Shown piece after piece: positions 1,752-56,348 of a DNA stretch of 64,000 nt. The stretch is from Gemmatimonadales bacterium. GTDB taxonomy: Bacteria; Gemmatimonadota; Gemmatimonadetes; Gemmatimonadales; GWC2-71-9. A program made the position numbers and the translations under genes. Location of the stretch: NCBI GenBank assembly GCA_035278885.1, contig DATEIR010000068.1, positions 4,095 to 68,094 of the forward strand. The letters are read 5' to 3'. Each line of letters begins with the position of its first letter. Position 1 is the stretch's first letter. The notes under the pieces were generated by a model. The model had not been told where the DNA came from. It did no database searches and was given only the letters and a program-made list of their open reading frames with translations.

Positions 1752-2312
1752 TCACAGCCGCCGTACCGGGACCAGCTCGAACGCACCGTCGAACCGGTAG
1801 ACATATCCGTGGTCACGGGCCTGGCCGGCGAATGCGCCGCTGGATCGGCCATCCCGCATCTCGGTGAGGTTCAGCTCGCCTTCGGCAGGCGACAGCCGGC
1901 CCGGCAGGCCCCGGCTCACCAGCAGCAGCGTGGCCGCGCCGGGCTCGAACGTGGGCACCAGCCGGTAGCGCCCGGGCGTCGTGCCATCCACTTCGATCAC
2001 CAGCCGATGGATCCCGTCCCGGCTGCCGAGCTCGATCGACAGATGGCCGCCGTCCACCACGGCCGAGACTTTGGCGTTGTCGAATCGGGCGAGCACGGTG
2101 GAGTCCCGCCGGACCGTGACCCACCCGGTGCTGCCGATCCTCGCACCGGGGTCCACGGCACCGCTCTCGACCGCGTCGGGCGCTTCGCCCCGGCGGCAGG
2201 CCGGCAGGGCGATGAGGGTCAGGATCAGGGTGAGGCTGGAGTAGCGCAGAGGCGGCTCCGGTGCGGTTGCCGAGGGCCCCATTGGCACGTAGAGTTGGGA
2301 CACAGTCGCCAT
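1752..2312 (-). CDS. Hypothetical lipoprotein (first gene of the Big_2/RCC1 operon)
   Basis: 186-aa ORF with a hydrophobic leader and the lipobox-like LTLIALPAC. Its stop overlaps the upstream GTG of the next ORF (GTGA at 1752..1755). No family was recognised. Confidence 0.6.
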   Translation of the reverse strand: MATVSQLYVPMGPSATAPEPPLRYSSLTLILTLIALPACRRGEAPDAVESGAVDPGARIGSTGWVTVRRDSTVLARFDNAKVSAVVDGGHLSIELGSRDGIHRLVIEVDGTTPGRYRLVPTFEPGAATLLLVSRGLPGRLSPAEGELNLTEMRDGRSSGAFAGQARDHGYVYRFDGAFELVPVRRL

Positions 2313-2376
2313 ACGCCGTCACCCGGATGACCCGCCGCCGTTATCAGGCCGGTGACGCTCCCCTTTTCGCCATCAC

Positions 2377-5127: not shown

Positions 5128-5131
5128 GGCG

Positions 5132-6355
5132 GTGCCCCGCCGCGTCGCCGTGATCGGGGCAGGGGCCGCCGGCACCATGGCGGCGATCTTCGCGGCCGCC
5201 GGCGGCGCCGAGACCCTGCTGCTGGAGCGCACGCGGGACGGCGGACGCAAGATCCTCATCAGCGGCGGCGGCCGCTGCAACATCCTGCCCGCGCGGGTGG
5301 AGGAGCGCCGGTTCGTCACCGACTCCTCGCCGCACACTCTCAGAAACATTCTCCGTTCCTGGCCGCTCGCGGAGCAGATCGCGTTCTTCGAGCGCGAGCT
5401 GAGCCTGCCGCTGGTGGAGGAGCGCGAGACGGCCAAGCTGTTCCCCGAGTCGAACCGCGCGCGCGACGTGCGGGACGGGTTGCTGGCGCTGGCGGCACGC
5501 CGCGGCGCGCGGGTGCTCTTCGATACCATGGTCACCGGGCTCGAGCCCGTGGCTGGCGGCTGGCGGGTCGAGCGGGAGCAGGGTGAGCCGCTGGCGGTGG
5601 ACGCGGTGGTCGTCGCCACCGGCGGGCTGTCCGTCCCCACCACCGGCAGCGACGGCCGCGGGCTGGCGATCCTTTCGGCGCTGGGACACACGGTGCACCC
5701 GACGTACCCGGCGCTCACGCCGGCGGTCGCGAGCCCGGCGCCGTTCGGGGCACTCGCCGGGGTCTCGCTGCCCGTCACGATCACCGCGCGCGACGACCGG
5801 AGGAGCGCCGGCAGCAGCGGCGGATTCCTCTTTACCCATCGGGGGTACAGTGGGCCGGCGGTGCTCGATGTGTCCCACGTTCTCGTGCGCTCACGCCTGG
5901 AGGGCGACGGGGGCGCACGGCTCCAGGTCCGGTGGTCAGCCCTCGACGAGGAGGGGTGGGCGCGCGCGCTCGAGCCGGAGGGCACCCGTACGGTCGCCGG
6001 GGTACTCCGGCGCGAGCTCCCCGATCGGCTGGCCGCCGCCTTGGCCGAGGCGGCCGGGGTGGATCCGTCCCGCCCGCTGGCCCAGCTCCGCCGAGAAGAG
6101 CGTTACCGACTGATCGAGGTGCTGGTGCGCGGCGAGCTTTTCTGGAGCGGAGACGAGGGGTACCGCAAGGCGGAGGTGACGGGCGGCGGGGTGAGCCTGG
6201 CGGAAGTGGCGCCCCGCACGCTGGAGAGTCGGCGCCACCCCGGGCTGTACCTGTCGGGGGAAGTCCTGGACGCATTCGGTCCCATCGGGGGATACAATTT
6301 CCTCTGGGCCTGGGCGACGGGCCGCGCGGCGGGGATCGCCGCGGCGCACGGGTGA
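5132..6355 (+). CDS. NAD(P)/FAD-dependent oxidoreductase, HI0933/YhiN (BaiN-like) family
   Basis: N-terminal dinucleotide fold VAVIGAGAAGTMAA, an ISGGGRCNI motif, and the C-terminal GEVLDAFGPIGGYNFLWAWATG that is typical of this family. Confidence 0.85.
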   Translation: MPRRVAVIGAGAAGTMAAIFAAAGGAETLLLERTRDGGRKILISGGGRCNILPARVEERRFVTDSSPHTLRNILRSWPLAEQIAFFERELSLPLVEERETAKLFPESNRARDVRDGLLALAARRGARVLFDTMVTGLEPVAGGWRVEREQGEPLAVDAVVVATGGLSVPTTGSDGRGLAILSALGHTVHPTYPALTPAVASPAPFGALAGVSLPVTITARDDRRSAGSSGGFLFTHRGYSGPAVLDVSHVLVRSRLEGDGGARLQVRWSALDEEGWARALEPEGTRTVAGVLRRELPDRLAAALAEAAGVDPSRPLAQLRREERYRLIEVLVRGELFWSGDEGYRKAEVTGGGVSLAEVAPRTLESRRHPGLYLSGEVLDAFGPIGGYNFLWAWATGRAAGIAAAHG

Positions 6356-6438
6356 GACGGCACTATCCTTCGGGAAATGCCGGCGCGCCTCTTCGAGAGG
6401 CGGCCGCGAGGATGGACCCCGAACGAGGAAGACTCGGT

Positions 6439-7140
6439 ATGGATCTGAAGACAGCCAAGGTGCTGGTGACCGGCGGCAGCACCGGAATCGGCCGCGACAT
6501 CGCCCGCGTACTGGTAGAGCGGGGCGCACGCGTCGCCATCTGCGCCCGCCACGAAGGAAATCTGCGGGCGGCCGCCAAGGAGATCGGCGCGACCGCCATC
6601 CACGGCGACGTGAGCCAGGAGGCCGACGCGGTCCGCATCGTGCGGGAGACGGTCGCCGCGCTCGGCGGTTACAACGTGCTGGTGAACAACGCGGGGATCG
6701 GTCAGTTCGCGCCGCTGCTCGACATGACCGCGACCATGATGCGTCAGGTGTGGGAGGTCAACGTGCTCGGCGCGACCATGGTCGCGCGCGAGTCGGCGCG
6801 TCACTTCGTGGCGCAGAAGGCGGGCAACATCATCAACATCGGCTCGACCTCCGGACTGCGGGCCGGGCCGGGCAGCAGCGCCTACGCCTCCACCAAGTTC
6901 GCCCTGCGCGCGCTGACCGAGTCGTGGCGCGCGGAGCTGCGCGCCCACAACGTGCGGGTGATGCTGCTCAACCCCAGTGAGGTCGTCACCGAGTTCGCCG
7001 GCCGAGCGGGCCACGCCCAGACCGACGACCCCTCCAAGCTGCACCCGCCCGAGATCGCGCACACGCTGGTGGCGATGCTGGAGATGGACGACCGCGGGAT
7101 GATTCCCGAGCTCAGCGTCTGGGCGACGAACCCGCGGTAG
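6439..7140 (+). CDS. Short-chain dehydrogenase/reductase (SDR)
   Basis: In-frame part of ORF 5932..7140. The ATG at 6439 gives MDLKTAKVLVTGGSTGIGRDIA (TGxxxGIG cofactor motif), NNAG, and YASTKFAL (YxxxK catalytic motif). An alternative ATG lies at 6412. The long upstream extension is Arg/Gly/Pro-rich and overlaps the previous gene. Confidence 0.85.
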   Translation: MDLKTAKVLVTGGSTGIGRDIARVLVERGARVAICARHEGNLRAAAKEIGATAIHGDVSQEADAVRIVRETVAALGGYNVLVNNAGIGQFAPLLDMTATMMRQVWEVNVLGATMVARESARHFVAQKAGNIINIGSTSGLRAGPGSSAYASTKFALRALTESWRAELRAHNVRVMLLNPSEVVTEFAGRAGHAQTDDPSKLHPPEIAHTLVAMLEMDDRGMIPELSVWATNPR

Positions 7141-13097: not shown

Positions 13098-14251
13098 CGA
13101 CCCTGCCTCTGCTTCCCGTCACGATGGTCGGCAGCTGGCCCCGTCCCGCGCCGCTGCTTCGGGCCCAGCGCGAGCGGAGACTCGGCCGCCTCGACCCCGC
13201 CGCCTGCGACCGCATCGCCGACGGCGCCGTCGTCGACCTGCTGCGCCTCCAGGAGGACCTCGGCGTCGACCTGGTGACCGACGGCGAGCTCAGGCGCGAC
13301 AACTTCTACTCCTTCGTCGCCGACAAGCTGGCCGGCGTTCGGCTCATGACGCTGGCCGAGATGCTCGAGATCATCGAGGACAAGGCGGCCTTCGAGCGAA
13401 TCCTGCAGACCCTCGACGTGCCGGCGTACTCGATCTCCAATCCGACCTGCGTCGGCCGCGTCGAGCGGCGCGCTCCGCTGGCGGTGGACGACCTGCGGTT
13501 CGCCCGGCGCCACACGTCGAGGCCGATCAAGGTCACCTTACCCGGGCCGTATCTGCTGACGCGGGCCATGTTCGTGAAGGAGGCGACGGGCGCGGTGTAC
13601 CGCTCGAAGGAGGATCTGGCGGAGGATGTCGTCCGCCTGCTCGTGGACGAGATCGCCGAGCTGCGCGCCGAGGGGGTGGACTTCATCCAGCTCGACGAGC
13701 CGGTGCTGACCGAGCTGGTCTTCGCGCAGGGGAAGACGCGCACGTTCATGTGTGCCGCGCTCGCCTCCACCCAGGATCCCACGGCCGAGCTCGAGCTGGC
13801 CGTGCAGCTTCTCAACCGCGTGCTTCCGGCCGCCGGCGACGTACGGACGGGCCTGCACGTCTGCCGCGGCAACTGGAGTCAGGACGAGAGCACGCTGCTC
13901 CGCGGCGGCTACGCGCCGCTCCGGCCCTGGCTCGACCGCATCGGCGTCGATCAGCTCGTGCTCGAGTTCGCCACGGAGCGCGCCGGAGCGCTGCTCGCGT
14001 TCGAGGGCAAGGAGCTGGGACTGGGCGTGGTCAATCCGCGAACGGCCCGGGTGGAGTCGGTGGACGAGGTGCGGGCGTCGATCGAGGCCGCCCTGCGTCT
14101 CTACCCGCCGGAGCGGGTGTTTCTCAACCCCGACTGCGGGTTCGCCACCTTCTCCAACCGCCCGGTCAACGAGACCGGCGTGGCGATCCGGAAGATGCAG
14201 ACCGTCGTCGAGGCGGCGCGCTCGCTGCGCGGCCGGGTGGTCGCGGCGTGA
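13094..14251 (+). CDS. Cobalamin-independent methionine synthase-like (Meth_synt_2 / MetE C-terminal domain) protein
   Basis: GTG at 13094, in-frame within ORF 13022..14251. Family strings are TMVGSWPRP and LVTDGELRRDNFYSF. The Zn-ligand positions appear conserved (GLHVCRGN = HxC; NPDCGF = Cys). Confidence 0.8.
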   Translation: MTTLPLLPVTMVGSWPRPAPLLRAQRERRLGRLDPAACDRIADGAVVDLLRLQEDLGVDLVTDGELRRDNFYSFVADKLAGVRLMTLAEMLEIIEDKAAFERILQTLDVPAYSISNPTCVGRVERRAPLAVDDLRFARRHTSRPIKVTLPGPYLLTRAMFVKEATGAVYRSKEDLAEDVVRLLVDEIAELRAEGVDFIQLDEPVLTELVFAQGKTRTFMCAALASTQDPTAELELAVQLLNRVLPAAGDVRTGLHVCRGNWSQDESTLLRGGYAPLRPWLDRIGVDQLVLEFATERAGALLAFEGKELGLGVVNPRTARVESVDEVRASIEAALRLYPPERVFLNPDCGFATFSNRPVNETGVAIRKMQTVVEAARSLRGRVVAA

Positions 14252-15471: not shown

Positions 15472-16200
15472 ATGCCGAAGCATAAGGAAAGCTCCACCCT
15501 GCGGAACGGGAACCGGATCCTCGCCGGACTCTCCGCCGCGGACCGGGCCAGTCTCGAGCCCTTCCTGGAGCGGGTCCGGCTGGAGCCGCGGGCTTCGTTC
15601 TGGGAGACCGGCCGGCCGATTCGAACGGTCGTATTCCCCGAAACCTTGGTCGCGTCGATCATCGCGACGGACGAGGAGGGCGGGGAAGTCGAGGTCGGGA
15701 CGGTCGGGTACGAGGGCGTCGTCGGGCTGCCCCTCTTCCTCGGCGCCACGACCGCGCCGGGGCGGGCGTTCACTCAGATCGGTGGCGACGGGTCTCGGAT
15801 GGATGCCGAGGCGTTCACCCGGTTCGCCGCGTCCCTGCCGGAATTCCGCACCCGGCTCCAGCGCTACACCCAGGGCTTCGTCGCCCAGGTGTCCCAGTCG
15901 GTCGCCTGCAACCGGCTTCATTCCCCCAGCCAACGGCTGGCCCGCTGGCTCCTGTCCTGCGCCGACCGGGTGGGGGCGGACCGCTTCCCCATGACCCAGG
16001 AGTTCCTGGGACAGATGCTGGGCGTCCGCCGGGCCACCGTCGGTGAAGCGGCCCAGGAGCTCCAGGAGCGCGGCCTCATCCGGTACACCCGCGGCGTCAT
16101 CGACGTCCTCGACCGGAGCGCGCTGGAGCAGGTCGCCTGCCCCTGCTACGGCATCGTGCGGCGGGAGTACGACAAGCTGCTGGGAACGGCGTTAGGGTAG
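15472..16200 (+). CDS. Crp/Fnr family transcriptional regulator
   Basis: GGAGG then the ATG at 15472. The protein has a cNMP-binding-like beta-roll and a C-terminal HTH (MTQEFLGQMLGVRRATVGEAAQELQERGLI). Confidence 0.85.
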   Translation: MPKHKESSTLRNGNRILAGLSAADRASLEPFLERVRLEPRASFWETGRPIRTVVFPETLVASIIATDEEGGEVEVGTVGYEGVVGLPLFLGATTAPGRAFTQIGGDGSRMDAEAFTRFAASLPEFRTRLQRYTQGFVAQVSQSVACNRLHSPSQRLARWLLSCADRVGADRFPMTQEFLGQMLGVRRATVGEAAQELQERGLIRYTRGVIDVLDRSALEQVACPCYGIVRREYDKLLGTALG

Positions 16201-18610: not shown

Positions 18611-18626
18611 GAGGGGAAGGAGAGCC

Positions 18627-18706
18627 GGGAAGAGCGAAGGGCGAAAGGCGAAGGGGCGCTACGATGAGCTTCTCGCGCGCCCCTTCGCCTTTCGCCCTTC
18701 CCGCTC
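18627..18706. repeat. Palindromic GGCGAAG-heptamer element (element A), a probable bidirectional terminator hairpin
   Basis: Perfect 24-bp stem GAAGGGCGAAAGGCGAAGGGGCGC (18636..18659) pairs with its complement at 18677..18700 across a 17-nt loop. It lies between convergent stops (18610 and 18728). It is related to the element at 38511..38611. Confidence 0.75.
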
Positions 18707-18727
18707 GCCTAACCTCCCCGGCCCCCC

Positions 18728-20214
<1,487 letters not shown>

Positions 20215-20218
<4 letters not shown>

Positions 20219-21258
20219 CGGCTGGCGACCTTTCGGCGCGAGGTCCGGGATGCGACGGCGCCCTCCGGCGGCGCCGTGGTGGCGCGGACCAGCAGGCTCG
20301 GCGACATGACGAGGGTGCGCCGGGCGGAGCGACGCTGCTCCAGGCGCTCGAGCAGCAGGTCGGCCGCGCTCCGGCCCATGGCGTTCCGGGGCTGATCGAT
20401 GGTGGTGAGGCCGATGTGGCCGAGGGCGGCGAGGGCGGTGTTGTCGTAGCCGACCAGGGAGACATCGTTGGGCACGCGGAGCCCGCTCCGGGTCAACGCA
20501 TCGAGGGCGCCGATGGCACTGAGGTCGTTGGCGGCGAAGATCGCGCTGGGGCGGGGGCCCCGTCCGAGCAGGGCCGCGACCGCGGCCGCGCCGCCTTCCT
20601 CGGTGTAGTCCCCCCGCACCACCCGCGCCTCCCGGCCGAGCCCGTGCCGCCGCATGGCCGTGAGATAGCCCTGCCGCCGCCCCTGGGCGCCGGCGCCGCG
20701 GCCGCCGTCGATGTGGGCGACCCGCCGGTGCCCCAGCTCGAGCAGGTGCTCGACGGCGAGGGTGGCGCCGGCCTCGTCGTCGTTGGTCACACAGTCCACC
20801 CGGGGCGCGGCGAGGACGCGGGAGACCAGCACCACGGGCACCGTGCGGCTGGCCTCCACGATCCGGGCGGACGGGAGCACCGGTCCCGCCAGGATCAGCG
20901 CGTCCATCCGGAGCTCGAGCAGGCTCTCGATCGCTTCGGACTCGCGCTCGGGATCGCGGCTGCCCGTGGTCACCATGGTGCGGTACCCCCGCTCGGCCGC
21001 CCGGGCGGCGATCCCGTCGAACACTTCGGCGAAGTAGGCGTTGTGCAGGTCCGAGAGCATCACGCCGAGCACGTTGGTGCGGCGGCGGACGAGACTCCGG
21101 GCGACGGCGTTGGGCCGGTAGTCGAGCGCGGCGACGGCGGCGAGCACCGCGCGCCGCTTGGCGTCGCTCACCGAGGGCGCGTTGCGGAGCACCAGCGACA
21201 CGAGCGACTTGGAGACGCCGGCACGGGCTGCGATGTCGAGAATGGTGGGCTGGCCCAC
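20215..21258 (-). CDS. LacI family transcriptional repressor (candidate iol regulator)
   Basis: N-terminal [25 protein letters not shown]...[10 protein letters not shown] followed by a periplasmic-binding-like sugar domain. Confidence 0.9.
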
Positions 21259-37479: not shown

Positions 37480-38511
37480 GTGGCGGTAGAACAGGTCGCC
37501 GAGATCGGCCGGCGGGCGGAGGCGGTGACTGGACGCCGGCGGAGGTGGCCGCCGGAGGCGGGGATCTTCCTGGTGCTCGTCGGCATAGCGCTGGCCTTCG
37601 AGCTGCTGGGCTGGATCCTGGTCGGGCAAAGCTTTCTGCTGAACTGGCAGCGGCTGCAGGTCATGATCCTGCAGGTCGCCGTCACCGGCATCATAGCGGT
37701 CGGGGTGACCCAGGTGATCATCACCGGGGGCATCGACCTGTCGTCGGGGTCGGTGCTCGGCATGACGGCGATGATCGCGGCGAGCCTGGCGCAGCGCTCC
37801 GACTACGCCAGGGCGGTGTATCCGGCGCTCACCGATCTGCCGGTGCTCGTGCCGGTGGCGGCGGGCCTGCTGGCGGGACTGGTGGCCGGGCTGGTCAACG
37901 GGACGCTGATTGCCTACACCAGGATTCCCCCATTCATCGCGACCCTGGGCATGATGGTGTCGGCCCGCGGCGTCGCCAAATGGTATACCCACGGCCAGCC
38001 GGTGAGCGGCCTGCGAGACGGCTACGCGGCGATCGGCTCGTGGATCTGGCCGGTGTTCATCTTCCTCGTCGTCGCGCTGATCTTTCACATCGCGCTCCGG
38101 TTCACCCGCTACGGCAAGTTCACCTACGCCATCGGCTCGAACCTGCAGGCGGCGAGGGTGTCCGGCATCGACGTGGGCCGTCACCTCATCGCGGTGTACG
38201 CCATCGCGGGACTGCTCTCCGGCCTCGCGGGGGTGGTGCAGTCCGCCCGGGCCATCACCGGGCAGGCGGGGATGGGGGTGATGGCGGAGCTGGACGCGAT
38301 CGCCGCCGCCGTCATCGGAGGCACATCGCTGTCGGGCGGCGTCGGGCGGATCACCGGGACGGTGCTGGGCACCGTGATCCTCGGCGTGCTGACGTCCGGG
38401 TTCACGTTCCTCAGGATCGACGCCTACTACCAGGAGATCATCAAGGGAGCGGTGATCGTCGCGGCCGTGGTGGCGGATCAGTATCGGCAGCGGAAGCGGA
38501 AGGGGGGGTAG
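37480..38511 (+). CDS. Sugar ABC transporter permease (RbsC/BPD_transp_2 type)
   Basis: Multiple TM segments and family strings ([28 protein letters not shown]). Confidence 0.9.
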
Positions 38512-38611
38512 GGAAGGGAAAGAGCGAAAGGCGAAGGGCGAAGGCGAAGGGCGCGCGCGAAGAATTCCTCGCGGGCCCCCTTCGCCTTTCGCCCTTCGCC
38601 TTTCCCCTCCC
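38511..38611. repeat. Palindromic GGCGAAG-heptamer element (element B), a probable bidirectional terminator hairpin
   Basis: The left arm GGGAAGGGAAAGAGCGAAAGGCGAAGGGCGAAGGCGAAGGGCG pairs with the right arm CCCCCTTCGCCTTTCGCCCTTCGCCTTTCCCCTCCC, with one indel. The loop is centred on GAATTC. It exactly fills the gap between convergent stops (38509..38511 and 38612..38614). Confidence 0.75.
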
Positions 38612-40697: not shown

Positions 40698-40783
40698 GTC
40701 AGGTGTCCGGAAGTGATCGAAAGTTGTCGTCCCATGGCGCGCCGGGCGGAACCCGGACTCCTAGCTTCGGAGCGGTTCCCGCT

Positions 40784-42829
40784 ATGGAGACGCGCTCGAT
40801 GCTTCGACCGACGACAATGGCGGCGGGTCTGCTCGCCGTCTCGCTCGCCACCGCCGGCGCCCAGGCGCCCAACGTCGTGAGCCCGGGCGACGACTTCTTC
40901 GCCTACGCCAACGGCGACTGGCTCGCCGCCACCGCGTTGCCGGCGGGTACCGAACGCTGGACCGCCCGCAACGAGATCAACGAGCTGGCGCGTCGACAGG
41001 TCGCCCAGCTCCTCGACGCCGCGGCCTCGGCGCCGGCGGGGTCGCTGGCGCGCCGGGTCGCCGACTTCCGCGCTGCCTGGCTGGACACCGCGGCCATCGA
41101 GTCGAAGGGGATCCGGCCCCTCGCGCCCCTGCTCGACAGCATCGGCCTGCTCCGCGACAAGGCGGACCTGACCCGCTACCTCGGGCGCGACGTGCTCGCC
41201 GACGTCGATCCGCTCAACTGGGGCGTGTACCGCTCGTCGCACGTGCTGGGTCTGTCGGTCGAGCCCGGCATCTGCGAGCCGACCCCGGTGGCCTTCCTGC
41301 TCCAGGGCGGGCTCGGCCTGCCCGACCGGGAGGACTATCTGAGCGCTGACCCGGCAAAGGTGTCACTCCGGAGCCGGTACCGACAGTACATCGCGCGGCT
41401 GCTGACACTCGCCGGGTTCGGGCATGCAATCGAGCGGGCCCGCGGGGTCCTGGACCTGGAGGTGGCGCTCGCGCAGTCCCAGGCGGGCGCCGAGACGTCG
41501 GCCAGCGACCAGAACGCCGACAGCCTGTGGCAGCGGGCGGACTTCGCCGGCCGGGCTCCGGGGATGGACTGGGCGGCCTTCTTCGACGCCGCGGGTCTGG
41601 CGGGGCAGGGGTCGTTCGGGGTGTGGCAGCCGCGGGCGGTCACCGGGCTGGCTGCCCAGGTCGGGTCCCGCCCGCTCCCCGTCTGGAAGGACTACCTGCG
41701 CTTTCATCTCCTGCAGGAGAACGTCGACCTGCTTCCGCGGCGGTTCGCCGAGGCGGGGGAGGCGCTTAGAGCGCGCAGGGACGCAGGGGCGCGGGGACGC
41801 AGAGGCGCAGAAACCAGCCCAGCGGCCGACCGAGCCGAGCAGGCGCTCGATGCGACCCAGACGGCCCTGGGCAACGCCGTGGGCCGGCTCTACGTCGAGC
41901 GGTACTTCGCGCCAACGCAGAAGGCCAGGCTGCAGACCATCGTCGCCAACGTGATCGCGGCTTTCCGGAAGCGCGTCGAGGCGGCGAGCTGGATGTCGGC
42001 CGAGACCCGCGCGACCGCGCTGGCCAAGCTGGACGCGGTGTATTTCGGAATCGGGTACCCGGAGCGGTGGCCGGACTATGGTGATCTGGTGGTGAAGGCC
42101 GACGACCCGATCGGCAACCTCCGTCGGGTCCGCGCGTGGGAGTACCGCCGAGCGCTGGCGCGCCTGGGCCGGCGGGTGGATCTGAAGGAATGGTGGCTGC
42201 CGCCTGCCCGGCCGGCGGCGATCCTGATCTTCCAGCAGAACGCGTACAACTTTCCCGCGGCCCTGCTGCAGCCGCCCAAGTTCGACCCGGCCGCGTCCGA
42301 CGCCACCAACTACGGCGCCATCGGGGCGATCGTCGGACACGAGGTCAGCCATATCGTCGATCTGCTGGGCATGGAGTGGGATGCCCAGAGGCGAGAGCGC
42401 CGGTGGTGGACGGATGAGGACATCGCGCGGTTCCATGCTGCGGCCGAGCCGCTGATGCGGCAGGTCGCCGAATATCAACCACTGCCAGGCGTGGCCGTCG
42501 ACGCCAAGAAGACGCAGATCGAGGATGTGGCCGACCTGGCCGGGCTGATGGCGGCCTTCGAGGCCTACCGCGCCGCTTTCGACGCCCGGCGCTTCGACGC
42601 CGGGTACGTAAAGCAGCAGGATCGGGAGTTCTTCCTGGGGTTCGCGCGAAGCTGGCGTAGCCGGAGCAGTGAGGCGGGATTGCGGACGCAGCTCGCGTCG
42701 GACAACCACACGCCGGAACAGTTCCGAATCGCCACGGTGCGCAACCTGGACGCGTGGTACCAGGCGTTCGATGTCACTCCGGGCCAGAAGCTGTACCTCG
42801 AGCCGCGCGCCCGGGTGCGTGTCTGGTAG
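40784..42829 (+). CDS. M13 family zinc metallopeptidase (PepO/endothelin-converting-enzyme-like)
   Basis: ATG at 40784, in-frame within ORF 40703..42829. Signal peptide; DDFFAYANGDW; NAYNFP; zinc motif VGHEVSH; C-terminal NLDAWYQAF...W. Confidence 0.9.
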   Translation: METRSMLRPTTMAAGLLAVSLATAGAQAPNVVSPGDDFFAYANGDWLAATALPAGTERWTARNEINELARRQVAQLLDAAASAPAGSLARRVADFRAAWLDTAAIESKGIRPLAPLLDSIGLLRDKADLTRYLGRDVLADVDPLNWGVYRSSHVLGLSVEPGICEPTPVAFLLQGGLGLPDREDYLSADPAKVSLRSRYRQYIARLLTLAGFGHAIERARGVLDLEVALAQSQAGAETSASDQNADSLWQRADFAGRAPGMDWAAFFDAAGLAGQGSFGVWQPRAVTGLAAQVGSRPLPVWKDYLRFHLLQENVDLLPRRFAEAGEALRARRDAGARGRRGAETSPAADRAEQALDATQTALGNAVGRLYVERYFAPTQKARLQTIVANVIAAFRKRVEAASWMSAETRATALAKLDAVYFGIGYPERWPDYGDLVVKADDPIGNLRRVRAWEYRRALARLGRRVDLKEWWLPPARPAAILIFQQNAYNFPAALLQPPKFDPAASDATNYGAIGAIVGHEVSHIVDLLGMEWDAQRRERRWWTDEDIARFHAAAEPLMRQVAEYQPLPGVAVDAKKTQIEDVADLAGLMAAFEAYRAAFDARRFDAGYVKQQDREFFLGFARSWRSRSSEAGLRTQLASDNHTPEQFRIATVRNLDAWYQAFDVTPGQKLYLEPRARVRVW

Positions 42830-42839
42830 CGAGACACGC

Positions 42840-43601
42840 ATGCGAGTCACCGTCTGCGAGCTGCCGCACGAGACCGATGCGCTCATCGCCGCGTGGGCAG
42901 ACTTGTGCGCGCACACCGCGGCGCACGGGTCGCAGCTCGTGCTTCTCCCTGAGTTCGCCATGGTGGAGCCTGTGTGGGAGTCGGAGCAATTCGAGGCCGA
43001 GCGCTGGAGTGCGATCGAGGCCCTGGGGACTGCGTACCTCCGCTGCCTCGCGGACCTGGGCGCCGAGTATGTGGTGGGCACCCGGCCGGTGACCCGCAAG
43101 GGGCGGCGCCTGAACCAGGCCTACATCTGGTCGGCTGCCGCCGGCGAAGAGCCGCTGCGGAACAAGTTCTTCCTCCCGCAGGAGCCGGGGAACTGGGAGG
43201 CGACGTGGTTCGAGGCGGGGGATCCCGGGTTCCCCCTGTTCCACACGGGTTCGATGTCCTTCGGGGTCAACATCTGCACCGAGCTGTGGGCGCTGGAGAC
43301 TTATGCGGCGTACGCCGCAGGTGGGATCGAGGTGTTGATGTCCCCGCGGGCAACCGCGCGGGCGACGATGAAGAAGTGGCTGGCGGCGGGGGTCGTCGCG
43401 GCGGTGCGCTCGGGGGCGTTCAGCTTGTCGTCCAATCGGGTCGATGCGACCGGTGGGTGCGGTGGGGGCGGGTGGATCATCGATCCGGCCGGGGAGGTGC
43501 TCGCAGTGACCTCGGCGCCCGAGCCGTTCGCGACGCGAGAGATCGATCTGGCGGCGGCGGCGGCGGCGAAGCGGAGCTACCCTCGGTACGTGTTTGGGTG
43601 A
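42840..43601 (+). CDS. Carbon-nitrogen hydrolase (nitrilase superfamily) protein
   Basis: ATG at 42840, in-frame within ORF 42669..43601. The Glu/Lys/Cys triad contexts are LLPEF, RNKFFLP and VNICTELW. Confidence 0.8.
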   Translation: MRVTVCELPHETDALIAAWADLCAHTAAHGSQLVLLPEFAMVEPVWESEQFEAERWSAIEALGTAYLRCLADLGAEYVVGTRPVTRKGRRLNQAYIWSAAAGEEPLRNKFFLPQEPGNWEATWFEAGDPGFPLFHTGSMSFGVNICTELWALETYAAYAAGGIEVLMSPRATARATMKKWLAAGVVAAVRSGAFSLSSNRVDATGGCGGGGWIIDPAGEVLAVTSAPEPFATREIDLAAAAAAKRSYPRYVFG

Positions 43602-43602
43602 A

Positions 43603-43642
43603 GGGGCGCAGGGCGCAGGGGCGCAGGGCGCAGGGGCGCAGG
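43603..43642. repeat. Left arm of a gene-flanking inverted simple repeat (GGGGCGCA/GGGCGCA)n
   Basis: GGGGCGCAGGGCGCAGGGGCGCAGGGCGCAGGGGCGCAGG begins 2 nt after the TGA at 43599..43601. It is the reverse complement of the array at 44026..44058. Confidence 0.8.
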
Positions 43643-43649
43643 TAGAGAT

Positions 43650-44009
43650 TCAGGGCGGGTCGGACATTCCTCTGAGCAGACCCCAGGTCAGTCGGCCTAC
43701 CTGGGTTCTTAGCCCATGCAGCTTTGCCCACTCCTGCTCCTCCAAGAGGCCGCGATCGCGAGCGAACCGTAGCAGATGGGACAGCTCCGCCAAGGACCCC
43801 CGGGCAATATTGAGGAACCGCCGCAGCTCGCGCGGGCCCAGGCGTGCCGCACCTTCCGCGATGTTGGCAGGGACCGACAAGGCGGCGCGACGCACTTGGG
43901 TCGTCAGCTCGAACCGCTCCGTCCTCGGCCATCTGTCGGTGGCATCATACACCTGCAGCGCCAAGCGATGCGCGGCTTGCCATGCGTCAAGCTTCTCGTG
44001 AGGGTCCAT
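43650..44009 (-). CDS. Four-helix-bundle protein (23S rRNA intervening-sequence protein family, PF05635/TIGR02436-like)
   Basis: LDAWQAAHRLALQVY...ERFELTTQVRRAALSVPANIAEGAAR...FLNIARGSLAELSHLL match the family consensus (W/FQKA...LxxQLRRAAxSIxxNIAEG...FLxIAxGSxxEL). Confidence 0.9.
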   Translation of the reverse strand: MDPHEKLDAWQAAHRLALQVYDATDRWPRTERFELTTQVRRAALSVPANIAEGAARLGPRELRRFLNIARGSLAELSHLLRFARDRGLLEEQEWAKLHGLRTQVGRLTWGLLRGMSDPP

Positions 44010-44025
44010 TCACCAAGGTTGGGCA

Positions 44026-44058
44026 CCCGCCCCTGCGCCCCTGCGCCCCTGCGCCCCT
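44026..44058. repeat. Right arm of the gene-flanking inverted simple repeat (CCCCTGCG)n
   Basis: CCCGCCCCTGCGCCCCTGCGCCCCTGCGCCCCT overlaps the stop codon (44057..44059) of the histidine-kinase gene. Confidence 0.8.
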
Positions 44059-45460
44059 ATCCCACCGCCGGCAACGCCACCCGAAACTCCGTCCGTCCCG
44101 GCTCCGACTCCACGTCGATCGTTCCCTCGTTCTTGTCCACCAGCCGGCGGACGATGTCGAGCCCGAGCCCGGTGCCCTTGCCCACTCCCTTGGTGGTGAA
44201 GAAGGGATCGAAGATCCGGGATTTCACATCGTCAGGGATGCCGGCCCCGTTGTCCCGCACCCGCACCACTACCCGATTCGACTCGACGCGGGCGGAGACC
44301 ACCACCCGGCCGTTCTCGCCCACCGCATCGAGCGCGTTGTCGATCAGGTTGGCCCAGACCTGGTTGAGCTCACCCCCGAACCCGCTCGCCTTGGGCAGGC
44401 CGGCCGGCAGGTCGAGGGTCAACGCCGCAGACTTCTCCCGCGCCTTCGCCCCCATCACGGCCAGCGTGTCCGTGATCCCCTTCGCCACATCCACCGGCTC
44501 GGCCGACGGCGCGTGGTCCATATAGGTGAAGCCCTTCACCGCGCTCACCAGCTCGTGCACCCGCGAGGCGGCACGCTCGACGTCCTGGGTCAGCGACCGG
44601 ACCATGCACCCGGAGGCGATCCAGCGGAGGCCCACCCCCAGCCGGTCTCCATCGAGCGCGGTGGCGAGCTCGTCGAGCAGGGCTATGGTGACGTTGGTCT
44701 CGCCCAGCGGGCCCGCGAGCGCGTCGTCCAGCCCGTGGTCCAGCAGCCAGTCGGTGAGCGCCTCCTCACGGTCGGAGCGCTCGAGCGGCGAGAACACGCC
44801 CGTGGTGGGCCCGCCGGTGCAGATGAAACGCACCCGCTCGACCGCCAGGAGCGCGCGGTCGTCGAGATCCGCCGCGCCCAGCTCGCGGGACGCCTCCTCG
44901 GACTCCGCCAGTGCCTCGGAGAGAAGCCTGGCGCTCCGGGCGGCCGCCGAGGCCGGGTTGTTCAGCTCGTGCGCCAGGCCGGCGGCGAGCTTGCCCAGCG
45001 AGGCCATCTTCTCCACCTGAAAGTCGCTGGCCTTGAAGGCCTTGGCCCGGTCCACCATCACGTGCACCAGCGACGCCGTCACAGTGGGACAATGGACCGG
45101 CAGCGCGGGCAGGTGCTCGGTGGGCACTCGGAAGATCTCGGCCGGCTCCAGGATCACCGAGTTCCCCGGCGCGGCGGCCATGCGGGAGTAGGGGAGCATG
45201 CCGGTCGCGTCCCCGGCATACCAGTCGATGGCCTTTCGCCAGACGCCGGCCTGATCCAGCATGTGCGCCACGTGGCCGGAGAGGATGATGTACATCGCCT
45301 CGACCGGCTGACCCTTGCGGGCGATCAGGTCGCCATCCTGATAGTGCTCCAGCGTCCCATGGTCCATCAGCCACTCCAGCTCGGCGCGAGGCGCGTTCCC
45401 CAGCGCCTTGTGCGCGCCGAGCCGGGCGAGGAGGGAGCCGTCGGATCCGGAGTCGCTCAT
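44057..45460 (-). CDS. Cytoplasmic sensor histidine kinase with N-terminal cyclic-nucleotide-binding domain
   Basis: cNMP-binding-like beta-roll (YQDGDLIARKGQPVEAMYIILSGHV), H-box AAGLAHELNNPASA and HATPase_c motifs (DNGAGIP, GTGLGLDIV). No TM segments. Confidence 0.85.
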   Translation of the reverse strand: MSDSGSDGSLLARLGAHKALGNAPRAELEWLMDHGTLEHYQDGDLIARKGQPVEAMYIILSGHVAHMLDQAGVWRKAIDWYAGDATGMLPYSRMAAAPGNSVILEPAEIFRVPTEHLPALPVHCPTVTASLVHVMVDRAKAFKASDFQVEKMASLGKLAAGLAHELNNPASAAARSARLLSEALAESEEASRELGAADLDDRALLAVERVRFICTGGPTTGVFSPLERSDREEALTDWLLDHGLDDALAGPLGETNVTIALLDELATALDGDRLGVGLRWIASGCMVRSLTQDVERAASRVHELVSAVKGFTYMDHAPSAEPVDVAKGITDTLAVMGAKAREKSAALTLDLPAGLPKASGFGGELNQVWANLIDNALDAVGENGRVVVSARVESNRVVVRVRDNGAGIPDDVKSRIFDPFFTTKGVGKGTGLGLDIVRRLVDKNEGTIDVESEPGRTEFRVALPAVG

Positions 45461-55018: not shown

Positions 55019-55318
55019 GTGAGAGCGGAGATGATCGAAGTTGTCGAGACCGAGTTGAAACGATTTGCAGCGGATCTGAACTTATCCGACGCCCAGAAGA
55101 CCCAGTTGAAGGTTGCCCTGGAGAACGCGCACGAGAAGATCGAGGCGGTTCGCGAGCAGAACCCCAACATCTCGAGGGCGGATGTGGTCGCGAAACTCAA
55201 GGAGAACCGGACCGCCATCCGCGAGCGGGTGGCGAAGTTCCTGAGCCCCGAGCAGCTGACCAAGTGGGATGCCGAAGTGACCAAGGCCAGGACGTTCCTG
55301 GGCAACAAGATCGACTGA
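55019..55318 (+). CDS. Small helical hypothetical protein with two LTxxQ-like motifs
   Basis: AAGGAG lies 9 nt before the GTG at 55019. The protein is 99 aa, Lys/Glu-rich, with LSDAQKTQL and LSPEQLTKW. There is no signal peptide (an in-frame TGA lies 2 codons upstream). The DNA is visibly more A/T-rich than its surroundings. Confidence 0.5.
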   Translation: MRAEMIEVVETELKRFAADLNLSDAQKTQLKVALENAHEKIEAVREQNPNISRADVVAKLKENRTAIRERVAKFLSPEQLTKWDAEVTKARTFLGNKID

Positions 55319-55376
55319 TGCCGGTTCCACCCGTCACCCGCGGCGGCCGCGGCCGCCGCGGGTGGCGGGCTCCTGC

Positions 55377-56348
55377 CTACTGCGCCAGTGAGAGTGGATC
55401 GATCCCCTTGCTCGCGTCGAACGAGGAGCCGATCGCGGCGACCACCGCGCGCTTCCGGTCCAGATCGGCCAGCTCCCGGATCCGGTAGACCGCCTCGATT
55501 CCCGTGCAGTGCGCGCCGAGCAGGTAGCCGAGGTGGGCCGAGCGGAGCCGGGTCGCCGTCCAGGCCAACGCCGAATCGCTGGCGGCGAACAGGTGCAATC
55601 CTCCGACGATCGCGTATGCCGGCTCGGCGCCCAGGATGTGCCGGGCGTACTCGACGGTATTGATGGTCCCCGCGTGTCCGCACCCCGCCACGACGACGAA
55701 GCCGCTGTCCGTGTCCACCAGCAACGACATGTCCTCGGGAAGCGTATCGGTGACGAGGCCGCCGTTCGTCACGATGCTCTCGGGCACGCCGTAGTAGCGC
55801 TCCGGGTTGGGGCGGGGGATCGGACCGGTGAGCCAGACGCCGGGGAAGATCTCCTCCGGCTTTCCGTGCACCACGAAGACCGCTCCGCTGGCCTCCATCG
55901 CGGCCCTCACCGCGATGGTGGGGTTGGCCTCCCGGTCGGCGCCAGGTGTACGGCGGCTCAGGAAGATGCCCGGCGCCACGTGGACGCGGGACATCGCCGA
56001 GGGCGATTGCTTCGAGAGCGCCTGACGCAGCGCGACCAGTCCGCCGGTATGATCCCCATGGTGGTGGCTCAGCACCACGTCGGTGACGTTGGAGAGATCG
56101 ATGCCGAGGTCGCGGGCGTTCTGCATCACGGTCTCCGGGTGGAGGCCGGTGTCGAACAGGATCCGGTGGCCGTCGGCCTCGACCAGCACGGAGAAGCCCC
56201 ACTCGCCCATGCCGCGGTCGGCCAGCATGGTGGATAGGGTCGTGATCTTGAGTGACGCGACCTTGTGGGGAGGGTGGCCCGGCAGTGCGACCGCCGGGCT
56301 GGCGGACAGGCCCAGTCCGGCGATCGTGCAGACGGCGAAACGGAGCAT
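55377..56348 (-). CDS. Secreted MBL-fold metallo-hydrolase
   Basis: Signal peptide; HxHxDH motif LSHHHGDHTGG; later His/Asp ligand contexts (AGCGHAG). Confidence 0.85.
   Translation of the reverse strand: MLRFAVCTIAGLGLSASPAVALPGHPPHKVASLKITTLSTMLADRGMGEWGFSVLVEADGHRILFDTGLHPETVMQNARDLGIDLSNVTDVVLSHHHGDHTGGLVALRQALSKQSPSAMSRVHVAPGIFLSRRTPGADREANPTIAVRAAMEASGAVFVVHGKPEEIFPGVWLTGPIPRPNPERYYGVPESIVTNGGLVTDTLPEDMSLLVDTDSGFVVVAGCGHAGTINTVEYARHILGAEPAYAIVGGLHLFAASDSALAWTATRLRSAHLGYLLGAHCTGIEAVYRIRELADLDRKRAVVAAIGSSFDASKGIDPLSLAQ

Follow-up and report, generated by a model that had tools for sequence, protein, structure and literature searches.

An apparent intervening-sequence-type cassette outside rRNA: a PF05635 gene between inverted 7-8-nt repeat arrays in a Gemmatimonadales genome

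Since about 1990 it has been known that bacterial 23S rRNA can carry intervening sequences (IVSs), and PF05635 is a large protein family without a known function. How IVSs arose, how mobile they are and what their conserved ORF does are open questions (PMC4990558). Here, we ask what kind of element occupies positions 43602-44058 of a 64,000-nt stretch of Gemmatimonadales DNA (the window), where a minus-strand gene for a 119-aa protein lies between tandem arrays of GGGGCGCA and CCCCTGCG. We propose that it is a non-ribosomal copy of a bacterial IVS, a PF05635 gene inside two inverted 7-8-nt arrays with the unit GGGGCGCA, that would be expressed by read-through and insulated by RNase III. For this account as a whole we put the probability at roughly 0.6; that the element is a discrete cassette of the IVS type is the part that we hold with high confidence.

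Both arrays adjoin the stop codons of the flanking genes, which encode a nitrilase-superfamily protein and a histidine kinase (Table 1). The left arm, on the 3' side of the cargo gene, begins 1 nt past the nitrilase TGA (43599-43601) and consists of alternating 8- and 7-nt units (AGGGGCGC/AGGGCGC), about 5.4 in number. The right arm is the 5' arm relative to the gene, whose sense strand reads (GGGGCGCA)n, and its last repeat unit contains the kinase stop codon (TAG, complement of 44057-44059). These stops, the arrays and the minus-strand gene had been placed by an earlier, sequence-only reading, and all are present, with coordinates off by 1-2 nt at most. The same reading saw the element at the shared 3' end of two convergent operons. 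It does fill the stop-to-stop gap, but its position is not neutral: the cargo gene reads in the same direction as the kinase gene, with its start 47 nt past the kinase stop. Between 43300 and 44400 neither a sigma-70-like promoter nor an intrinsic terminator was found, and none lies between the kinase and the cargo gene. The 5' spacer of the cargo gene, 55-110 nt long in relatives, is missing here; aligned with the related locus L082, the window lacks about 40 nt of spacer. Since this spacer is lost, read-through from the kinase gene is most likely, and we regard that gene as the probable source of transcription into the cassette. A CRISPR array was ruled out, as the units are 7-8 nt long and abut directly, while CRISPR needs 23-50-nt repeats with unique spacers. 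The nitrilase-superfamily gene was called as 253 aa in the same-species contig L001.

Table 1. Features of the element, its neighbours and the two ORF-less hairpins in the window
Feature	Position	Strand	Description
Left neighbour, carbon-nitrogen hydrolase (nitrilase superfamily)	42840..43601	+	PF00795, E=9e-20
Left arm	43602..43642	no strand	15-nt super-unit AGGGGCGCAGGGCGC x2.7 (TRF); inverted-repeat pairs
Cargo gene	43650..44009	-	PF05635/TIGR02436, 119 aa
5' leader, 5' arm to ATG	44010..44027	-	sense strand reads GGGTGCCCAACCTTGGTGA ahead of ATG
Right arm	44028..44058	no strand	+ strand (CGCCCCTG)x3.9, 100% perfect (TRF); inverted-repeat pairs
Upstream neighbour, cNMP-binding histidine kinase	44057..45460	-	PF02518 + PF00027
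ORF-less hairpin 1	18611..18727	no strand	arms (GAAGGGC)x3.9 + (CCCTTCG)x2.9, loop 17-25 nt
ORF-less hairpin 2	38512..38611	no strand	arms (AAGGGCG)x5 + (TTCGCCT)x4

The cargo protein belongs to the family named '23S rRNA intervening sequence protein' and matches PF05635 (E=3e-32, 111.4 bits against a cut-off of 33.8, residues 5-107 on a 106-position model) and TIGR02436 (E=3e-29, 101.4 bits against a cut-off of 24). From this family membership and from homology to PDB 2GSC (XCC0516; E=1e-21) it is predicted to be a four-helix bundle. It carries the invariant motif R40 R41 A42 A43 S45 P47 N49 A51, plus G58. The core motif described for the family, GxxRxxxSxxxNxxE (PMC3936711), is present as RRAALSVPANIAEG; in an alignment of 31 sequences no substitution occurs at R40, R41, S45 or N49, and almost none at E52 and G53. 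The dN/dS of the cargo gene is 0.08 against L082 and 0.11 against L134, a second related locus, and ranges from 0.03 to 0.16 across comparisons of PF05635 cassettes. Judged by these ratios, the protein is under purifying selection. The GC3 of the gene is 0.76 compared to about 0.9 in the neighbouring genes. Profile searches gave no transposase-family match for the cargo protein.

The arms contain perfect inverted repeats of 17-18 nt, and the arm 17-mer has 7 matches in the window against 0.22 expected. Arm-arm duplexes of about 38-40 bp with 1-3 bulges reach a predicted free energy of -85.4 and -83.3 kcal/mol, compared to -53 +/- 4.8 kcal/mol for shuffled arms. When the whole element is folded as RNA, the arms find each other whichever strand is used (z=-3.6 and -3.0), and 0 of 100 shuffles were as stable. 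Pairing is not always retained: at L134 only about 1.5 units of the 5' array are left, next to a 3' array that is still long and variable. At L041, L042, L076 and also L166 the arrays lie in direct and not in inverted orientation. Arm mismatches give no RNA signature on the sense strand, with 57 A·C and 58 G·U, and thus nothing suggests selection for pairing in the sense RNA in particular. The complementarity of the arms could be maintained by a process at the DNA level.

The layout is general. We sampled 80 genome loci, which are the best matches to the window protein and hence not an unbiased sample of PF05635; they span more than 10 phyla, including Gemmatimonadota, Acidobacteriota, Planctomycetota, Omnitrophota, Nitrospirota, Desulfobacterota and NC10. 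Comparing each upstream flank with the reverse-complemented downstream flank, a complementarity score of at least 30 was obtained at 56 of 76 loci (the shuffle maximum was at most 30). By the strict criterion of complementary 7-8-nt tandem arrays on both sides, 35 of the 71 related genes with both flanks available qualified, compared to only 2 among 1420 control intervals (Fisher p ~1e-48). Periods were mostly 8 (89 arrays) and 7 (39), with some of 9 (10) and 10 (6). The 5' unit is the reverse complement of the 3' unit, with at most one mismatch, at 72% of loci compared to 10% for mismatched loci. Cultured Nostoc, Calothrix, Geminocystis and Gemmatirosa have the same layout on complete plasmids. 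Placement in a convergent gap, true of the window, is not part of the general pattern, as cassettes also occur in co-directional and divergent gaps, in operon interiors and in rRNA. In the searchable literature no description of this architecture, an array-bracketed PF05635 cassette beyond rRNA, was found.

Comparison of loci also sets the boundaries of the unit. In the two non-syntenic pairs L014/L016 (94% protein identity) and L002/L023 (87%) the flanks are unrelated, and DNA homology runs up to the outer end of the 3' array and no further. In L002/L023 it starts with the 5' array; in L014/L016 this boundary is not seen, both contigs beginning inside the 5' array. The window, L082 and L134 have the unit GGGGCGCA in common in differing contexts, at a dS of 0.7-1.3. 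ORF GC was lower than flank GC in 41 of 41 cases. Array copy number differs between samples, and in L001 the left array is shorter by one 15-nt super-unit, which indicates that copy number slips. Orthologous junctions, retrieved via the nitrilase gene, are polymorphic among relatives: intact (L082), decayed (L085, L131), reduced to a solo arm (L084, L089) or empty (L087). The sequence-only reading had proposed a self-contained and possibly mobile cassette with the IVS layout outside rRNA, to be given up if PF05635 genes elsewhere lacked flanking inverted repeats, if the junction were fixed, or if the stem were no more stable than shuffled sequence. It is supported on all three counts. MITEs and other TIR transposons combine terminal inverted repeats with a target-site duplication. 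The window cassette has inverted ends; neither at its boundaries nor at those of L002/L023 and L014/L016 is such a duplication evident, though the degenerate array ends could hide short ones, and no recombinase was found; mobility thus rests on comparative inference. Metagenome assemblies may in addition be chimeric at repeats, and many contigs stop within arrays. With movement inferred by comparison, we interpret the gene with its arms as a widespread, movable and dispensable cassette rather than an ordinary gene.

How close is this element to a true IVS? Azospirillum L153 is a bona fide 23S IVS, lying within the Rfam LSU match at 2280-5478 at the helix-45 site, and its ORF sits between a purine-rich first arm and a pyrimidine-rich second arm with 7-nt periodicity. 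The architecture of the cassette is identical. ORF-containing 23S IVSs (Leptospira, Coxiella, Brucella, Xanthomonas and Azospirillum L153) share with the window element a long stem whose loop holds the PF05635 ORF, the purine-rich 5' and pyrimidine-rich 3' arms, the 7-8-nt tandem periodicity and a copy number that varies between strains. They differ in location, since they lie in rRNA while the window copy lies in the 3' region of an mRNA with protein-coding flanks; Rfam gave no rRNA anywhere in the 64-kb window, so that insertion in a 23S helix (H25 or H45), as a criterion, is not met. There are also ORF-less rRNA IVSs, of the Salmonella, Yersinia or Campylobacter type (PMC4990558). They parallel the two ORF-less hairpins of the window in having a cargo-free stem. 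In contrast to these IVSs, which sit in 23S helices 25 and 45, the window hairpins are intergenic between convergent genes, and for this parallel there are no data on descent. The Coxiella IVS has a 5' arm of (GACAGAT)x2-3 that varies from strain to strain and is cleaved by RNase III at the first repeat; its ORF appears untranslated and decaying (PMC4990558), whereas the window ORF is under strong purifying selection. RNase III excision has been shown for rRNA IVSs; for the window cassette it is only inferred.

On the favoured account the gene is inherited and relocated as one unit with a short spacer and the two arrays, which shift copy number fast by slippage yet remain mutually complementary. 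The host can dispense with the cassette, which has decayed or been lost in some relatives; purifying selection maintains the protein. In the window the cassette occupies the 3' UTR of the histidine-kinase gene and is inferred to be transcribed by read-through. In the transcript the arrays would then pair into a duplex of about 40 bp with the ORF in the loop. By inference from the rRNA precedent, RNase III would cut this duplex and release the cassette RNA, or insulate it, from the host transcript. Such insulation, likewise inferred, would let the element live in transcription units, rRNA included, with little harm. The RNase III step is the weak one; without direct evidence for transcription or cleavage at the locus, the analogy leaves it at somewhat below even odds.

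Several known systems share parts of this anatomy. Inverted ends built of short tandem repeats in variable number, with or without a coding loop, are known from Drosophila foldback (FB) transposons. The likeness is an analogy only, as FB elements are eukaryotic and have much longer arms and a known transposase in their coding copies. REP/REPIN elements and their RAYTs resemble the cassette as dispersed extragenic palindromes, frequent between convergent genes, and as a single protein gene flanked by inverted repeats. However, RAYT is a tyrosine (Y1) transposase of the IS200/IS605 type, while the cassette protein is a predicted four-helix bundle without a known catalytic motif, and REPs have a fixed sequence while the unit of the cassette's tandem arrays varies by locus. 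Membership was rejected, the enclosed protein being PF05635 without a transposase-family match. The accessory protein of diversity-generating retroelements (DGRs), Avd, is a distant homolog of the cargo protein (PF22296, E=4e-6) and belongs to the same four-helix-bundle pentamer fold class as the cargo family (PMC10053308). Identity with Avd was not met (NCBIfam model NF033474, 29.8 bits against a cut-off of 80), and unlike in DGRs no reverse transcriptase or template/variable repeat lies beside the cargo gene, whose neighbours are the kinase and the nitrilase. Intergenic heptamer arrays, GGGAATC in Xanthomonas and GGGGA(C/T)T in Nostoc, have been treated as G-quadruplex elements (PMC4692102). 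Like the cassette arms, these arrays and the cyanobacterial STRRs are intergenic 7-nt tandem repeats, often in convergent (inverted) pairs; Xanthomonas has about 70 such pairs per genome, with lengths that vary between relatives (PMC4692102). Both genera have PF05635 genes, and the words 'intervening', 'hypothetical protein' and 'terminator' do not occur in the text of that paper. The link between heptamer arrays and PF05635 is established for plasmid copies only.

The most serious alternative is that we are dealing with a DNA-level foldback or REPIN-like element. Its arrays would be cis-acting DNA sites, as hairpin or cruciform, that serve transposition, copying linked to replication, or gene conversion; the PF05635 protein would act in trans by analogy with RAYT and REP, ORF-less hairpins would be non-autonomous satellites and RNA processing would be incidental. 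The hairpins speak for it. The two cargo-less relatives noted earlier in the window do exist; they are its strongest hairpins, lie 20 kb apart, use one unit family and each fill a convergent gap, between stops at 18610 and 18728 (with a 29-nt inverted repeat, 93% complementary) and at 38511 and 38612. Near cassettes, and within the window too, hairpins that lack an ORF and have tandem-array arms are frequent (20 in 712 kb), and one and the same unit turns up at several intergenic sites close to each other (L082 at 1189, at 2247-2486 and inside its cassette; L063 with six arrays; L160 at 15707-15753). The symmetric G·U and A·C mismatches, the arrays that persist and vary without a partner, and the Xanthomonas array pairs of unknown function (about 70 with inverted GGGAATC; PMC4692102) point the same way, as does the polarity with the purine-rich arm first (75 of 90 pairs), which the palindrome shows on either strand, whatever the gene orientation. 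Against this, no nuclease, recombinase or polymerase motif can be recognised in PF05635, the only solved relative being a four-helix-bundle pentamer; PADLOC gave no match, and no target-site duplications were seen. The protein lineage is only weakly linked to the repeat unit in Gemmatimonadales (rho -0.20, 36 of 2000 Mantel permutations as extreme), proteins of only 56% identity have one unit in common, and the window's ORF-less hairpins are built of another unit than its cassette arms. We consider this alternative unlikely, yet a live one; it overlaps with the IVS-type cassette and does not exclude it.

Two further readings leave the gene out of the explanation, and both seem very improbable to us. 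Simple-repeat hairpins might be the normal way in which this lineage ends convergent genes, an ordinary gene having landed by chance inside a pre-existing bidirectional terminator whose arms belong to the host site. The arms adjoin both host stop codons, and the two other convergent junctions carry cargo-free simple-repeat hairpins. But the arms travel with the gene: the unit is kept in non-syntenic contexts, homology ends at the outer arm ends, and the association extends across phyla and to operon-internal, divergent and rRNA contexts. The loop between the arms of the window element is about 385 nt and a U-tract is missing, so that the criterion for an intrinsic (Rho-independent) terminator is not met; none of these hairpins has a U-tract. 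A loop of 400 nt is incompatible with intrinsic termination. The non-syntenic copies and the 35 of 71 against 2 of 1420 largely refute this reading already. The arrays could also be mainly G-quadruplex or Rho-related regulatory repeats at the nitrilase and kinase 3' ends, with the PF05635 gene as a bystander. (GGGGCGCA)4 matches the G4 motif on both sense transcripts, and G-rich heptamer arrays of Xanthomonas and Nostoc have been investigated as G4 elements (PMC4692102). However, many cassettes have non-G4 units (GTGACAA, AGTCACA, AATGGTG, AAAAGCT) with the architecture unchanged, and G4 formation does not explain why arrays are linked to the gene.

If the architecture is general, IVSs are one niche of a widespread cassette able to occupy any transcription unit, and this cassette is a candidate explanation for heptameric intergenic repeats. 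One may go further, speculatively, and see PF05635 cassettes and ORF-less hairpins as a pan-bacterial class of foldback-type mobile elements, an extension that we think doubtful. The rRNA IVSs may then be merely the first-noticed members, and the class may be the source of an excess of 7-8-nt tandem repeats in intergenic DNA of bacteria that has long gone unexplained, including STRRs and the Xanthomonas GGGAATC arrays. By analogy with TRAP, and without binding data, a ring-forming Avd-like protein may bind one unit per subunit and so may control pairing, processing or copying of the arrays; per-subunit binding, if true, would conserve the period while the unit sequence drifts. As the element boundaries are now defined, mobility, RNase III processing and protein-repeat binding can be tested directly, and Gemmatirosa, Nostoc, Xanthomonas and Azospirillum offer cultured hosts. 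The many contigs that end in arrays are a warning that such arrays break assemblies. PF05635 has also been given the label 'CRISPR-associated' (PMC3936711, PMC10910872). Operons are among the places where cassettes insert, two of them lying between cas6 and cas4, and we infer that this may explain some of the reported neighbourhood associations of PF05635.

Intervening sequences (IVSs) of 23S rRNA are already known, as is the four-helix-bundle family first described within them, PF05635/TIGR02436, whose members are annotated as 'four helix bundle protein' or 'S23 ribosomal protein'. What appears to be new, in that we found no description of it, is that PF05635 genes outside rRNA generally retain the IVS architecture; this statement covers the 80 best matches to one protein and a literature search that did not reach most subscription journals. 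Within the same limit of the search, we found no description of inverted tandem arrays around non-rRNA PF05635 genes, no account of gene and arms as a discrete relocatable unit, and none of ORF-less hairpins of the same build accompanying such genes. Heptameric intergenic arrays, often in inverted pairs, have been described in Xanthomonas and Nostoc (PMC4692102), and a search of that text turned up no mention of intervening sequences, hypothetical proteins or terminators. The finding is real, and the interpretation offered by the sequence-only reading, a possibly mobile or RNase III-processed cassette, is largely right. It raises testable questions about the origin of IVSs, the function of PF05635 proteins and the heptamer repeats of bacteria.

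In the window the PF05635 gene is enclosed by two inverted tandem arrays (arms) whose cognate units are GGGGCGCA and UGCGCCCC, and the succession of nitrilase stop, array, ORF, array and kinase stop that had been read there was borne out by the coordinates and by the PF00795 and PF05635 matches (see the table). Both profile matches of the cargo ORF lie far over the cut-off (PF05635, E=3e-32; TIGR02436, E=3e-29), and the sole solved relative of its product is XCC0516 of Xanthomonas campestris (PDB 2GSC). The arms hold perfect inverted repeats of 17-18 nt, and their motif occurs 7 times in the window vs 0.22 expected. They pair in the minimum-energy fold of each strand (z=-3.6 and -3.0), and the isolated arm duplex reaches -85 and -83 kcal/mol vs -53 +/- 4.8 for shuffled arms, so the stem is much stabler than shuffled sequence. 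One correction concerns the relation of the cargo gene to its neighbours: it runs in the same direction as the kinase gene and starts 47 nt beyond the kinase stop, and no sigma-70 promoter-like or intrinsic-terminator-like site was found in the interval between the two. The usual 55-110-nt 5' spacer is absent from this cassette. Since the spacer is missing and no promoter was seen, we infer that read-through from the kinase gene is the likely source of cargo expression. Searches of the window against Rfam families and PADLOC defence models and a phage genome search gave no match, and no further PF05635 copies were found within it.

Positions of the cassette and the ORF-less hairpins in the window, and of six small genes at comparison locus L159
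Feature	Position	Strand	Remarks
Nitrilase-superfamily ORF, stop TGA	43599-43601		PF00795 match
Left array	43602-43642		alternating 8/7-nt units (AGGGGCGC/AGGGCGC)
Cargo ORF, 119 aa	43650-44009	minus	PF05635 + TIGR02436
Right array	44028-44058		perfect (CGCCCCTG)x3.9
cNMP-binding histidine kinase, stop	complement of 44057-44059		inside last unit of right array
ORF-less simple-repeat hairpin	18611-18727		unit family GAAGGGC/GAAAGGC; fills convergent stop-to-stop gap
ORF-less simple-repeat hairpin	38512-38611		unit family GAAGGGC/GAAAGGC; fills convergent stop-to-stop gap
L159, six genes	1017-1367, 4715-5071, 6066-6449, 6599-6979, 13425-13799, 19941-20291		

A direct comparison with a true IVS is possible, as one plasmid match without an annotated CDS lies in an rRNA operon of Azospirillum lipoferum 4B (locus L153), with the PF05635 ORF inside a 23S rRNA at 2280-5478 (Rfam). 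The insert starts after ...CGAAGCUGCGGA and opens with TTCAGAGGACGGATGACAGAGGACGGAGGACAGAAAGG; it ends in CTATCCGTCCTCTGTCTTCTGTCATCCGTCTTCTGA, followed by UGGUAGCGGAGCG. It consists of a purine-rich 5' arm with a 7-nt period, the ORF and a complementary pyrimidine-rich 3' arm. The IVS of Coxiella carries two or three tandem GACAGAT heptamers ahead of the ORF, a number that differs from strain to strain, and the RNase III cut falls where the first of them begins (PMC4990558). The window element is alike in every sequence feature of IVS architecture and differs in location alone, and the comparison with both IVSs upholds the proposal of a stem-plus-ORF of this type outside rRNA.

This architecture is widespread. 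We aligned 31 homologues and searched for relatives in one genome of each species; of the 80 loci, the best matches to this one protein, 37 belong to Gemmatimonadales and the others to Planctomycetota, Omnitrophota, Nitrospirota, Acidobacteriota, Desulfobacterota, NC10, WOR-3 and more. When the 150 nt upstream of each gene were locally aligned with the reverse complement of the 150 nt downstream, the score was at least 30 in 56/76 loci, a value never exceeded by per-locus shuffles, and the matching segments were nearly always tandem arrays. Under a strict criterion, complementary arrays bracket 35/71 PF05635 genes vs 2/1420 control intervals of the same length from the same loci; the association with flanking inverted repeats on which the initial proposal depended is thus found elsewhere. 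The period was 7 in 39 arrays, 8 in 89, 9 in 10 and 10 in 6, and the 5' unit is the reverse complement of the 3' unit (at most 1 mismatch) in 72% of loci vs 10% for arrays paired across loci. Period and layout are conserved, while the unit sequence varies widely (GGCGGTCG, GGACGGTC, GGTAAGGC, GAGGGAAC, GACAGATG, GTGACAA, AGTCACA, AATGGTG and more). Complete plasmids of cultured strains share the layout, which is therefore no artefact of metagenomes. In Nostoc punctiforme (L154), (CAGGAGT)n and (CTCCTGA)n are packed into operon gaps of 38 nt and 16 nt; (GGGAAAA)n and (CCCTTTT)n occur in both Nostoc ATCC 53789 and Geminocystis, (GGGTGTA)n in Calothrix, and (GGGCAGGA)n and (CTCCTGCC)n in Gemmatirosa. 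The cassette of Gemmatirosa kalamazoonensis KBS708 (L156) lies on plasmid 1 at about 1,007,600-1,008,100. The convergent stop-to-stop setting described for the window holds there and had to be rejected as a general rule, with cassettes in other gap types. A gene-linked polarity, with the purine-rich arm upstream of the gene, was likewise rejected; the polarity of an inverted repeat is the same on both strands and hence says nothing about gene orientation.

PF05635 proteins are related to the DGR protein Avd (PMC10053308) and have been reported in cas loci (PMC3936711, PMC10910872). Two cyanobacterial cassettes with long heptamer arrays lie between cas6 and cas4 (L164, Anabaena sp. 90 pANA02, 595-963; L166, Pseudanabaena galeata pPg_01, 601-960), a placement that fits the reported association. 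Such cassettes may be what lies behind the family's published 'CRISPR association', which, we infer, may reflect operon insertion and not CRISPR function. At L166 the ORF stands between arrays in direct orientation, and a third, complementary array lies upstream.

Gene and arms form one unit, as judged by boundaries, composition, dynamics and junction polymorphism. Two pairs of loci have closely related cassettes in unrelated flanks, L014/L016 (94% protein and ~95% DNA identity) and L002/L023 (87% identity), and in both the DNA similarity extends through the 3' array and stops at its outer edge. In L002/L023 it also starts within the 5' array; in L014/L016 this boundary is not visible because both contigs start inside that array. 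The window, L082 and the L134 group (SWIB - cassette - ABC-F) have the GGGGCGCA unit in common in differing contexts, at a synonymous divergence of 0.7-1.3. No target-site duplications were seen where cassette boundaries were compared. The GC content of the ORF is below that of the flanks in 41/41 Gemmatimonadales cassettes (0.60 vs 0.68), and the window cargo gene has a GC3 of 0.76 vs ~0.9 in neighbouring genes (values from a simple GC-frame gene caller, which miscalled the nitrilase region and was used for GC3 only). The arrays are dynamic: the same-species contig L001 has one 15-nt super-unit fewer, population samples (L134-L143) have anywhere between ~4 and 10 units in the 3' array, and copy number varies in both arrays in L144-L152. 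Intact ORFs are under strong purifying selection (dN/dS 0.03-0.16), which indicates that the protein is used, though the cassette is dispensable.

At the nitrilase/kinase junction, a metagenome scan with the nitrilase gene gave 52 loci, with close relatives defined by a 77-90% identical nitrilase. In L082 the cassette is intact and has the GGGGCGCA unit; its 5' spacer is 55 nt long, an additional small gene lies to its left, and its right neighbour differs. In L085 and L131 the cassette is decayed (49-nt internal deletion, 5' end replaced, right arm gone). L089 keeps a solo (CCCTGCGC)x3 array, and in L084 the nitrilase and a 90%-identical kinase have no cassette between them, only a solo (CTGTCCGA)x3 array adjoining the kinase stop. 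In L087 the site is empty, and the left flank runs straight into the response-regulator gene found after the decayed cassette of L085. The junction is thus polymorphic for presence and absence.

Some further features of these loci were observed. A conserved minus-strand ORF of ~80 aa lies between nitrilase and cassette in L082 (3260-3560) and is present in all the other close relatives too (L084, L085, L087, L088, L089 and L131). The window lacks this ORF, its arm adjoining the nitrilase stop, and a deletion in its lineage is implied. Directly upstream of the nitrilase gene, L082 (1189-1237 and 2247-2486, GGGGCGCA) and L084 (675-750, GGCGGACA) have arrays of the local unit family, so that this gene is bracketed there by arrays of two adjacent hairpins. 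In L014/L016, ORF and spacer have ~53% GC in host genomes of ~66% GC, yet their arms, (GGGCGGTC)n, are rich in GC, as in other Gemmatimonadales cassettes, which suggests that arms and cargo can differ in history, e.g. by arm exchange or rewriting. Many metagenome and MAG contigs begin or stop in or beside arrays (L005, L009, L012, L014, L016, L036, L088 and others), and assemblies seem to break often at these elements.

Judged by its anatomy and by the rRNA precedent, the cassette would form an RNA stem from the paired arms, and RNase III would cut it. Such a cut would free the cassette RNA from the host transcript or insulate it, which would account for the tolerance of the element inside rRNA, operons and 3' regions. 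The main rival, compatible with RNA processing, is that a DNA-level process may maintain the arms, such as template switching within palindromes, gene conversion between arrays or a foldback-transposon-like mechanism, and that the PF05635 protein may act on the arrays. Mismatches in 56 arm pairs, counted on the sense strand, were G·U in 58 cases vs A·C in 57; this symmetry lends no support to selection acting specifically on the RNA, and the idea of a sense-strand RNA signature was dropped. Some arrays also stay unpaired or lie in direct orientation, and together with the missing RNA signal this makes DNA-level maintenance of the arms possible. Support for a protein that recognizes its own repeat unit is weak: protein and unit correlate over all loci (rho -0.55), a value confounded by GC content and taxonomy, and within Gemmatimonadales rho is -0.20 and 56%-identical proteins share a unit, so that specificity is not established. 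RNase III processing of the stem remains an inference.

The two cargo-less relatives of the cassette proposed for the window are present, and they are its top hairpins. The 712 kb of fetched sequence contain 53 complementary array pairs around a PF05635 gene and 20 short-loop pairs without ORF, the latter in several phyla. Local recurrence of a unit is frequent: GGGGCGCA arrays occur four times in L082, a single family accounts for six arrays in L063, and L160 has a hairpin that reuses the unit of its cassette 5 kb away. L084 has GGCGGACA arrays where L082 and the window have GGGGCGCA arrays. In the window, a GGGGCGCA-like array (41768-41811, ~5.4 units of AGAGGCGC/AGGGACGC, encoding roughly RARRDAGARGRRGAET) falls inside the part of ORF 40703-42829 that codes for Peptidase_M13_N and may be an in-frame array insertion; the cassette, which uses the same unit family, is 1.8 kb away. 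A GC-rich palindrome at 55330-55369 (20+20 nt, 95% complementary, no loop), between the convergent ORFs 55019-55318 (+) and 55377-56348 (-), is an ordinary hairpin without tandem repeats. L159 has six called genes of 116-127 aa within 20 kb of its cassette, none with a match to Pfam or the PF05635 profile. L156 and L157 have a closed purine-arm/pyrimidine-arm hairpin upstream and a second pyrimidine-rich arm after the ORF, an arrangement that allows alternative pairings. In L157 (647-1640) the closed hairpin at 647-753, made of the purine-rich and the first pyrimidine-rich array, is followed by a 124-aa ORF without Pfam match, the PF05635 gene and the second pyrimidine-rich array (1608-1640), with the 124-aa ORF as a possible second cargo gene.
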